This document shows, piece by piece, positions 37,296-38,103 of a stretch of DNA of 64,000 nucleotides. The stretch is taken from NCBI RefSeq assembly GCF_055900595.2, contig NZ_CM148325.1. One strand, given 5' to 3'. A model generated the notes under the pieces. That model searched no databases and was not told where the DNA came from. It saw only the letters and a list, made by a program, of their open reading frames with translations. The number at the start of each line of letters is the position of its first letter. The stretch's first letter is position 1. Made by a program: the position numbers and the translations under genes.

Positions 37296-37766
37296 ATGGC
37301 TACAATCCTCACCACTGACAGCGATTTACTCGATCTATTGACCGTCCCCTTCAATGCCACCACGGATTTCACTGTCCTTGCTGACTACTGCGCCCGCTTT
37401 GCCGAAACCCTGATTGAAACCGACGATCCCGCGCTACGACTGGCGCTCTGCGGGCGGCTTCACGCGGCTCTTGCGCTATTGCAACCCACACTACACGACC
37501 CCATCCCACCGCATCTTACCGAAAGCCTGACCGTGGATACCCTTCCCGCCACACCAGAGCACTTTATTTCCGAACCTGATTCCTTGTGCGAATACTGCCT
37601 CGCACTACTCCAGCTTCTGCTGGAACGTCCGGCGGAACCAAAAATGGAGCAAACCCTGACCGGGCTGCTGTGTGAGCTGGTCTGGTATTTCACGGAAGGA
37701 CTCAAAGCCCCGCGCTGGATGCGTACCGCCGACGGCGTAAAATTTATCAGCGAGGTGGCCGCATGA
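37296..37766 (+). CDS. Hypothetical protein (156 aa), Leu/Ala-rich, acidic
   Basis: ORF preceded by GGAGG SD; no recognisable motif; stop overlaps the start of the ner-like remnant. Confidence 0.45.
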   Translation: MATILTTDSDLLDLLTVPFNATTDFTVLADYCARFAETLIETDDPALRLALCGRLHAALALLQPTLHDPIPPHLTESLTVDTLPATPEHFISEPDSLCEYCLALLQLLLERPAEPKMEQTLTGLLCELVWYFTEGLKAPRWMRTADGVKFISEVAA

Positions 37767-38103
37767 TGCAACAGGACTGGCATTCCGCCGACATTATTGC
37801 GGTGCTGAAAAAGCGGGGAACGCCTCTGGCGGCACAGAGAAAAACTCATTGCGGAAGCGCTGTAAATATCGCCAGAAATCATCTGGTCCTCAAGGTACTT
37901 TGATAGCAAAGGCAAGCTGGCTGGTTCAGTCCGGAGTCTCTCTTCTTGCACTTAAAGAGATGGGAGGATGGGAAACTCTCAAAAAGGTTCAGAGATACGC
38001 TCACCTTTCAGCCGGGCATCTCACCGAGCACGCAAGCAAAATCGGCACGATCATAAGTCGCAATGGCACAAATACGGCACAGGAGGAAGCGTGGTGTATT
38101 TAA
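37763..38103 (+). pseudogene. Frameshifted Ner/Nlp-like HTH gene fused to the 3' end of a tyrosine-integrase gene (deletion scar)
   Basis: Frame A reads MMQQDWHSADIIAVLKKRGTPLAAQ (Ner/Nlp-like N-terminus); frame B reads ...GPQGTLIAKA (Ner-like C-part) joined in frame to [40 protein letters not shown], a typical integrase C-terminus with the catalytic Tyr. Confidence 0.6.

Follow-up and report, generated by a model that had tools for sequence, protein, structure and literature searches.

A probable composite scar of an old island and a lambdoid integrase tail at the thrW site of Escherichia coli

Results and Discussion

Organization of the thrW region

The stretch of DNA analyzed here, in the following called the window, comprises 64,000 nucleotides of contig NZ_CM148325.1 (assembly GCF_055900595.2) and represents the proBA–thrW region of E. 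coli, with proA and proB located right of thrW and the bet, ykg, rcl and fdeC genes in the left flank. The features of importance are listed below with the evidence for each of them; L numbers designate loci from other genomes used for comparison.

33120–33887, minus strand: IS1, 768 bp, which in this strain now forms the left border of the old island (insA/insB ORFs at 33135–33832; IS1 ends read in the sequence)
33888–36949, plus strand: RT_UG5-nitrilase gene (DRT class), 5'-truncated by IS1 (PADLOC)
37053–37131, plus strand: isrK-like RNA or a1-b1 leader, start of the conserved island backbone (Rfam)
37154–37242, plus strand: C4-type antisense (immunity) RNA gene (Rfam, fold)
37296–37766, plus strand: 156-aa ORF, an intact backbone gene (dN/dS, homologues)
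37763–37833, plus strand: Ner/SfsB-like pseudogene, N-terminal part of about 24 codons (Pfam, NCBIfam, homologue alignment)
37834–37915, plus strand: Ner-like pseudogene, C-terminal part (alignment to the intact genes of L005, L006 and L011)
37911–37915: deletion junction with GGC(AA) microhomology (window compared with intact ner and HK75 int)
37911–38103, plus strand: 3' tail of a lambdoid tyrosine integrase of the HK75/SfX type, 63 codons and stop (Pfam, tblastn, blastn)
38104–38144: phage attP arm (25 nt) followed by a 16-nt partial thrW copy (comparison with HK75 and thrW)
38145–58846, minus strand: newest island (20.7 kb), encoding a P4-type integrase of its own at 57467–58681 (integrase domains, island content)
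58847–58922, minus strand: thrW, tRNA-Thr(CGT) (ARAGORN; Rfam tRNA)

The 20.7-kb island is bracketed by thrW (58847–58922) and the 16-nt copy at 38129–38144, which is the arrangement of an insertion at a tRNA gene with att direct repeats. Its left junction is common to only four complete genomes, and the state without this island is represented by L001, which is 99.9% identical and in which the region under study, in the following called the scar, directly abuts thrW. Integration of the 20.7-kb island has thus pushed the scar away from thrW. At the other side the homology to L001 begins exactly at 33888, right beside IS1; this position corresponds to L001 4689, and as the RT gene of L001 starts at 4541, IS1 has cost the window copy 148 nt (49 codons) including the native start. 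The left end of the old island is replaced by IS1 in the window, and a distal thrW repeat for this end was found neither in the window nor in L001 or L002. The C-terminal half of a 354-aa 'Ash' ORF in the 20.7-kb island was considered as a homologue of the 156-aa ORF and was rejected, since the comparison revealed no homology.

A Ner-like pseudogene in two frames

The original prediction for 37763–38103, a Ner-like frame joined to the 3' end of a tyrosine integrase, could be confirmed with all components being present far above chance. It had also stated that the Ner-like frame shifts and then continues in frame into the integrase, which had to be corrected as the N-terminal Ner part, the C-terminal Ner part and the integrase tail are found in three different frames. 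Frame A (37763–37833) encodes MMQQDWHSADIIAVLKKRGTPLAA, the N-terminus of a Ner/SfsB-type protein, and its start overlaps the stop of the 156-aa ORF (ATGA). Frame B (37834–37915) encodes EKLIAEAL*ISPEIIWSSRYFDSKG, the C-terminal Ner motif. The joined peptide matches Pfam HTH_35 (PF13693, E 8.2e-13) and NCBIfam SfsB (E 1.1e-11), the HTH_35 match of the remnant being restricted to two stretches.

Intact ner genes for comparison were those of L005 (84 aa), L006 (71 aa) and the Salmonella locus L011 (84 aa). These island-borne Ner/Nlp (SfsB) homologues of the HTH_35 family (71–84 aa) share with the remnant the N-terminal motif DWH(S/P)ADIIA and the C-terminal motif EKLIA..L..SPEIIW.SRY as well as the position directly after and overlapping the 156-aa ORF. 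In contrast to them the window copy has three lesions. An internal deletion of 65 nt between 37833 and 37834, located between imperfect TGGC(G/C)GC repeats, has removed the HTH core and shifted the frame, a TAA nonsense codon is present at 37863–37865, and the last 12 codons are gone with integrase DNA in their place. A contiguous Ner/SfsB ORF of about 70–90 aa with an intact winged HTH is therefore absent from the window.

Two ORFs are nevertheless open in the window, an 84-codon ORF (37849–38103) and a 46-codon ORF covering the Ner N-terminus, and PGAP calls the latter a CDS in some genomes, which might be taken as a hint that the fusion has generated a functional small gene. We consider this extremely improbable: the Ner part is without its HTH, the integrase tail has the RYAHL Tyr motif only and lacks the HxxR box and everything N-terminal of it, the tail sequence is freely replaced between strains, and other alleles contain stops, namely TGG>TGA in the N-terminal Ner part of L002 and L010 and RR*AHL, a stop within the Tyr motif, in the tail of ST131. 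Over its first approximately 20 codons the 84-codon ORF, which was called mechanically, reads Ner DNA out of frame. The additional TGG>TGA stop points to a neutral decay of the Ner-like pseudogene, and judged from the sequence the whole Ner-like/integrase region is a decaying pseudogene which encodes no fusion protein. RefSeq annotates the scar as 'helix-turn-helix domain-containing protein' and 'integrase; frameshifted; incomplete; missing N-terminus'; it is already labelled there as pseudogenes and as such is an ordinary, known feature.

The integrase tail and the att core belong to a lambdoid phage

Frame C, starting at 37912, encodes the C-terminus of a tyrosine recombinase and matches positions 137–170 of the 172 positions of Pfam Phage_integrase (PF00589). 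Using tblastn against 50,697 phage genomes, the tail was found to be 93% identical at the amino acid level (E 7e-29) to the integrases of the Shigella phage SfX and of the E. coli lambdoid phages mEpX2, HK542, HK446, HK75, mEp043, mEp213 and ECP1, and thus descends from the HK75/SfX lineage of PF00589 tyrosine recombinases. In a blastn comparison 37911–38144 and the 3' end of HK75 int were 90–91% identical over 236 nt at the nucleotide level, with an alignment that goes on beyond the gene through spacer and att core. HK75 Int consists of 386 residues, of which the window retains residue 320 onward. These are 63 codons or 17% of the gene, instead of the last approximately 35 codons assumed originally, and they include an extra 1-nt deletion near the end. 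As the breakpoint follows HDLRHTW at Int residue 319 of 386, the HxxR box (residues 313–316; HDLRH 313–317) just upstream of it is lost together with all N-terminal domains, while the motif of the Tyr nucleophile, RYAHL, is kept. The tail consequently contains neither the complete catalytic domain (R-K-HxxR-H/W-Y) nor the N-terminal DNA-binding domains.

The integrase stop and the partial thrW copy are separated by 25 nt and not by the 20 bp given before. The 16 nt of this copy (38129–38144) align with a 17-nt piece of the thrW 3' end, from which they differ by the lack of one C, and in L001 the tail/thrW-copy sequence runs directly into the real thrW. HK75 attP contains a run of 48 nt identical to the thrW 3' end, which begins 12 nt past the int stop, and SfX-type phages have been described to integrate at thrW beside proA, also in tandem (PMC3306764). 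Because of the HK75/SfX-type identity through the att core, the thrW run in HK75 attP and the thrW integration of SfX-type phages, the tail and the thrW copy represent the attL end of a former lambdoid prophage; 38104–38144 is its former attL core, now serving as distal repeat of the newest island. The attP arm and thrW core of the window are the same as in the thrW-specific lambdoid and serotype-converting phages (HK75, SfX and others), and as in these phages the 3' end of int converges on thrW beside proA. The difference to them is that neither xis nor a prophage follows behind the tail.

The conserved isrK/C4/156-aa module

Left of the scar, 37015–37915 represents a conserved module which has different neighbours in other genomes, with homology to other islands starting at 37015–37030. 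It begins with an isrK-like RNA (Rfam 66.5 bits, gathering score 50), for which a promoter-like site (37018–37046) and a terminator-like hairpin (37112–37125) can be recognized, whereas the c4-a1b1 model with 41.5 bits stays below threshold. The C4 RNA reaches 71.1 bits in Rfam (gathering score 45) and folds with −51.1 kcal/mol (z −4.17). The elements a1 (37076–37085) and b1 (37096–37103) are repeated as a2 (37245–37254) and b2 (37278–37286), the unpaired C4 loops b' (37197–37205) and a' (37213–37219) are complementary to a2 and b2, and b2 overlaps the Shine–Dalgarno sequence of the 156-aa ORF (ATG at 37296), which is the first ORF downstream of C4. In score as well as in target layout this corresponds to a C4 antisense RNA system (RF01695/RF03163), and the 156-aa ORF is predicted to be controlled by it. 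The a1/b1 leader, the a'/b' loops and a2/b2 targets over the Shine–Dalgarno sequence of the next ORF are shared with the antisense-RNA immunity modules of P1/P7 (c4-icd-ant) and P4 (CI) (RF01695, RF03163, RF01394). Unlike there, the downstream 156-aa and Ner-like proteins are unrelated to icd/ant and the module resides in a chromosomal island and not in a phage. PGAP annotates the C4 DNA as a short 'ash family protein', and the Pfam Ash match falls on the translation of the C4 gene.

The 156-aa ORF is a real gene, as seven alleles show a dN/dS of 0.12–0.35 and 630 homologues, all unnamed, are distributed across the Enterobacterales. It belongs to no family in Pfam, NCBIfam, PHROGs or PADLOC. 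Its AF2 model (pLDDT 82) is a helical bundle, and a Foldseek search of this model against the PDB yielded only generic helical bundles, none of them significant (best E 0.06). Among 50,697 phage records the 156-aa/Ner module is present in no complete phage genome, the sole match being an unannotated record of 1,472 nt, and plasmids are practically devoid of the ORF.

Intact relatives of the old island

The module is found intact in E. albertii and in five E. coli loci examined, one at pheV (L006) and four at asn tRNAs (L005, L007–L009). In L005, L006, L007 and L009 the order is isrK/C4, 156-aa ORF, Ner, sometimes a TA pair, the EFASI RNA motif and a 294-aa PF12835/PF12834 recombinase, and L008 shows the same order of the genes. 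In each of the five loci a P4-type integrase and a tRNA lie close by, and the opposite side carries cargo that varies (defence systems, Rhs/PAAR effectors). The PF12835 gene is present in L005–L009, L011, L014 and L015, and an intact module is without exception linked to this recombinase and to a P4-type integrase. The atypical relaxase MpsA of SGI1 is recognized by the same signature, PF12835 (PMC10484663, PMC6414798), and the oriT of SGI1 is reported to lie close to the mpsA/mpsB genes (PMC6414798, PMC10484663). The 294-aa PF12835/PF12834 protein of the intact relatives, by its family signature a candidate counterpart of MpsA in SGI1-type integrative mobilizable elements, is preceded by a structured element, EFASI. 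In the window both have been deleted: there is no PF12835 gene and no EFASI match in Rfam, so that the SGI1-like combination of a PF12835 gene with an adjacent transfer origin is missing.

The comparison with intact thrW islands, which had been proposed as a check, settled the question. L011 and L012 from Salmonella enterica show the intact arrangement at thrW/proA and are the decisive comparator. The order in L011 is an intF-like integrase (439 aa) at the far end, AbiEii/AbiEi, a type I R-M system, isrK, C4, the 156-aa ORF, an 84-aa Ner, EFASI, a frameshifted PF12835 gene, approximately 550 nt, thrW and proA. L011 and the thrW island of ST131 (L010) are 89–94% identical across intF, AbiE, the type I R-M system and the C4 module. 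Compared to L011, E. coli has lost approximately 2.3 kb of the thrW-proximal island end and has gained the phage integrase tail. The integrase of the island itself is the intF-like gene at the opposite end (L010 1635–2954, L011 1–565), which is a pseudogene in ST131 and absent from the window. A P4-type integrase between the PF12835 gene and thrW, as in L006–L009, was also considered for the thrW island and was ruled out by this far-end location in Salmonella and ST131. Among the matches listed from a search of 5426 complete E. coli genomes no intact module was found at thrW, the intact ones being at pheV and asn tRNAs.

The island of ST131 (EC958) and other ExPEC has been published as 'GI-thrW' (PMC3203889, PMC4134206, PMC4659465). 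Together with L011/L012 it shares the chromosomal site and the backbone (AbiE, variable slot, isrK/C4, 156-aa ORF) with the old island of the window, and in E. coli it has the same scar junction. The window differs in that the slot is occupied by RT_UG5-nitrilase instead of a type I R-M system, that AbiE and the intF end have been removed by IS1 and that the extra 20.7-kb island lies between scar and thrW.

The RT gene was identified as RT_UG5-nitrilase by PADLOC (E 7.7e-288, profile matched from position 79), and 260 E. coli genomes carry it with ≥99% identity. It occupies a slot between AbiE and the isrK/C4 module, and a type I R-M system is located in the same slot in L002, L010 and L011. 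In E. albertii a block of RT, C4 and 156-aa ORF is 90.5% identical and part of an island beside mtfA/zinT, where a PF12835 gene and a P4-type integrase follow. From the slot and from this block we conclude that the RT gene is cargo of the island family and not of the prophage that left its integrase tail here. The suggestion that the RT-nitrilase gene and the 156-aa ORF are cargo of an earlier element therefore holds only for the former, being cargo of the older island; the 156-aa ORF is conserved island backbone and not cargo, and this element is not the owner of the integrase tail.

Originally all pieces, i.e. integrase, Ner-like gene, 156-aa ORF and RT-nitrilase gene, had been assigned to one older element, from which an internal deletion took most of the integrase and cargo. 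An older element does exist left of the scar, and the pieces are contiguous, co-oriented and end at a thrW repeat. We nevertheless regard this as very unlikely, as both the tail and the att core stem from a lambdoid phage, no complete genome among the 50,697 phage records carries the 156-aa module, HK75 has xis and not ner upstream of int, and islands in which the module is intact rely on a PF12835 recombinase and a P4-type integrase. Also the alleles vary independently, with the tail of L002 being only 66.5% and its Ner part 98.6% identical. Ownership is thus divided, with a lambdoid tail, an island-borne module and an intF-like island integrase.

A more tentative possibility concerns the module itself. 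The isrK/C4 RNAs and the 156-aa four-helix protein might still be a working unit which selection keeps in hundreds of E. coli genomes even though Ner, the PF12835 recombinase and the integrase of the island are gone. They might represent an undescribed family of mobilizable islands (isrK/C4-156aa-Ner-EFASI-PF12835, with an AbiE-flanked swap slot and defence or T6SS effector cargo), in which the EFASI RNA could be the oriT of an MpsA-like relaxase, and Pfam 'Ash' could largely be translated isrK/C4 RNA genes; all this together we hold to be possible rather than probable. The more interesting leads from this locus are the gene putatively controlled by C4, the proximity of EFASI to a PF12835 gene and the overlap of 'Ash' ORFs with RNA genes.

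The junction and its distribution

A three-way comparison of the window, intact ner (A8, Salmonella) and HK75 int located the junction between the ner 3' end and the integrase gene. In the window sequence GATAGCAAAGGCAAGCTGG the identity to intact ner extends as far as GGC(AA) and the identity to int begins with GGCAAG, giving a microhomology of 3–5 nt at 37911–37915. Using a 90-nt probe across the junction, the same junction was detected in 802 of 5426 complete E. coli genomes (approximately 15%). These genomes, ST131 among them, have diverse backgrounds, and their matches to the junction are 88–100% identical. The scar occurs at one place per genome with no copies seen away from thrW, and the sole 'plasmid' match is a 64-kb record holding thrW-region DNA. 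We found no description of the junction itself in the literature on PF12835, EFASI and GI-thrW.

Different alleles of the integrase tail are joined to the one shared Ner junction, namely the type of the window and L001, a 90% mosaic in ST131 and the type of L002. The tail of L002, an O139 strain, switches allele approximately 20 nt past the junction, while the adjoining Ner part remains 98.6–99.3% identical across all tail alleles. As the tail varies and the Ner part stays nearly identical, the tail must have recombined again since, and the original partner cannot be read from one strain. Later thrW phages or a second tail are plausible partners for this recombination. Such a second, diverged integrase tail with 74% identity to HK75 exists in ST131, where it lies at the distant end of the island (yagU side) ahead of a thrW copy of 51 nt and the intF-like pseudogene, indicating that the history may involve more elements than modelled here.

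Proposed origin of the scar

Taken together, the feature is probably a non-functional composite scar from at least two successive occupants of the thrW site, in which a deletion joined the ner gene of the old island to the integrase tail of a lambdoid phage. What each piece consists of and where it derives from could be observed directly, as could the lesions, the junction, the comparator with the intact arrangement and the frequency in the population; for the order of events and for one single deletion having made the junction we infer the following scenario. An isrK/C4-156aa-Ner-EFASI-PF12835 island would first have been present at thrW, with the module facing the tRNA and the P4-type (intF-like) integrase at the far end. 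A lambdoid phage with an HK75/SfX-type integrase would then have entered thrW, placing the 3' end of its int beside the tRNA. An illegitimate deletion at the GGC(AA) microhomology, from the last ner codons to int codon ~319, would have cost the island its arm, the PF12835 gene, EFASI and the 3' end of ner, and would also have taken away the internal att copy together with all but a remnant of the prophage. Afterwards the ner remnant would have decayed by the 65-nt deletion, the TAA stop and, in other strains, the extra stops. In this strain a third element, the 20.7-kb island with its own P4-type integrase, would finally have integrated into thrW, and in a separate event IS1 would have truncated the RT-nitrilase gene and removed AbiE and the first 49 codons. 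As SfI and SfX demonstrate (PMC3306764), it is the intact tRNA gene that receives a new arrival, and accordingly the newest element is the one nearest to thrW.

From the original prediction of a deletion that removed an earlier integrase and its cargo, the deletion scar of older integrated DNA stands. What was lost is different, namely the approximately 2.3 kb of island end, as measured on L011, and presumably also almost an entire prophage. A single origin is supported by 802 of 5426 genomes sharing this junction. A genome with the predicted intermediate, an intact island end together with an intact HK75-type prophage at thrW, was not found.

Such a single origin might also have been elsewhere, with the scar being formed once in another genome and the Ner'-int tail-core then travelling as the att-proximal arm of a composite island, either by excision from a tandem array via the outer att copies or by homologous replacement of the proA–ykg region. 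The identical junction in 802 diverse genomes at 88–100% identity would fit to this, as would the 'int tail + thrW copy' at both ends of the ST131 island and the E. albertii block of RT, C4 and 156-aa ORF, which at 90% identity at another site shows that island blocks do move. However, the island integrase is a pseudogene in ST131 and absent from the window, and no excised or relocated scar copy was seen away from thrW, which makes us regard such a transfer as unlikely, if somewhat less so than a single element owning all pieces. It would change where the deletion happened but not what the scar is. We therefore keep the deletion between two successive occupants of thrW as the preferred explanation.

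Conclusion

In itself the scar matters little, being a dead junction at a classic integration hot spot. As one junction shared by approximately 15% of the complete E. coli genomes it can be used as a clean lineage marker, and it is a worked example that an integrase fragment beside an island need not be the integrase of this island. This caution matters whenever defence cargo, as RT_UG5-nitrilase in the present case, is assigned to a mobile element.

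Integrase tails and repeats at thrW

The junction between the ner remnant and the lambdoid integrase tail (window 37911-38103) recurs unchanged in the thrW locus of an O139 strain of E. coli, L002. There the tail (L002 8709-8912) shares no more than 66.5% identity with that of the window and switches allele about 20 nt 3' of the junction, whereas the ner remnant next to it is 98.6% identical; this points to later recombination limited to the tail and the att region. A second, diverged lambdoid tail with 74% identity to HK75 is located at the far (yagU) end of the thrW island of an ST131 strain:

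L010 1210-1467: second lambdoid integrase tail, with a partial copy of thrW (51 nt) and a pseudogene of an intF-like integrase behind it

The tails at the thrW locus were left by at least two different thrW phages.

Just within both ends of the 20.7-kb island we observed a direct repeat, and an analogous motif lies just within the island, close to the att copy, in ST131 and Salmonella. Both may be arm-type binding sites of the integrases.

Window 38206-38227 and 58713-58734: ATACCCCCA(A/T)AAGTACCCCCAT
L010 1584-1623: AAGTACGCCAG(C/T)AAGTACGCGAG, by the far-end thrW copy of ST131
L011 11928-11967: AAGTACGCCAG(C/T)AAGTACGCGAG, by thrW of Salmonella

Gene content of the 20.7-kb island

On the minus strand (window 43672-52362) the island encodes a P4-like primase-helicase together with homologues of P22 ejection proteins, an unusual cargo for a satellite-like island; the Inj_translocase domain of one of them is that of the P22 injectosome translocase. 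At the distal end comes a 228-aa protein with a SocA/Panacea domain, and after it a 144-aa ORF for which no family was found; the two could be a PanA-type toxin-antitoxin pair.

49603-52362, minus: P4-like primase-helicase (Toprim and DUF927)
48379-43672, minus: P22 ejection protein homologues (DUF2824, gp7, Inj_translocase-domain protein, SLT-domain protein)
39284-40407, minus: SocA/Panacea-domain protein and 144-aa ORF

RNA genes and a candidate transfer origin

An isrK and C4 antisense RNA pair is present in each of the two islands, the remnant of the old one and the 20.7-kb one:

Window 37053-37242, plus: pair of the old island remnant
Window 54781-55008, minus: pair of the 20.7-kb island

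The PF10554 'Ash' match of a 354-aa ORF (window 54322-55389) covers residues 123-231, corresponding roughly to the DNA of the latter pair, and the short 'ash family protein' beside the 156-aa ORF is a translated C4 gene. Translated RNA genes may largely account for the Pfam Ash family.

In all intact relatives scanned, the Rfam EFASI motif was found about 55-110 nt 5' of the PF12835 (MpsA-type) recombinase gene:

L005 13339-13472, L007 9993-10121 and L009 10823-10952: E. coli asn tRNA islands
L006 12729-12855: E. coli pheV island
L011 10345-10478: Salmonella thrW locus

The oriT of SGI1 has been reported near mpsA/mpsB. EFASI may be a DNA transfer origin and not an RNA.

The RT_UG5-nitrilase block

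In the window (33120-33950) an IS1 adjoins the RT_UG5-nitrilase gene and has taken away 148 nt of it, comprising the native start and 49 codons, and the AbiE pair present in the E. coli thrW locus L001 was also removed; the present start of the 999-codon ORF is a TTG 63 nt past the IS1 end. The block of RT-nitrilase, isrK-C4 and 156-aa ORF is 90.5% identical in an E. albertii island adjoining mtfA/zinT (L014 5590-9495), preceded there by AbiE and followed by a PF12835 gene and a P4-type integrase. Islands that occupy different tRNA sites and belong to different species share this cargo-plus-backbone block.
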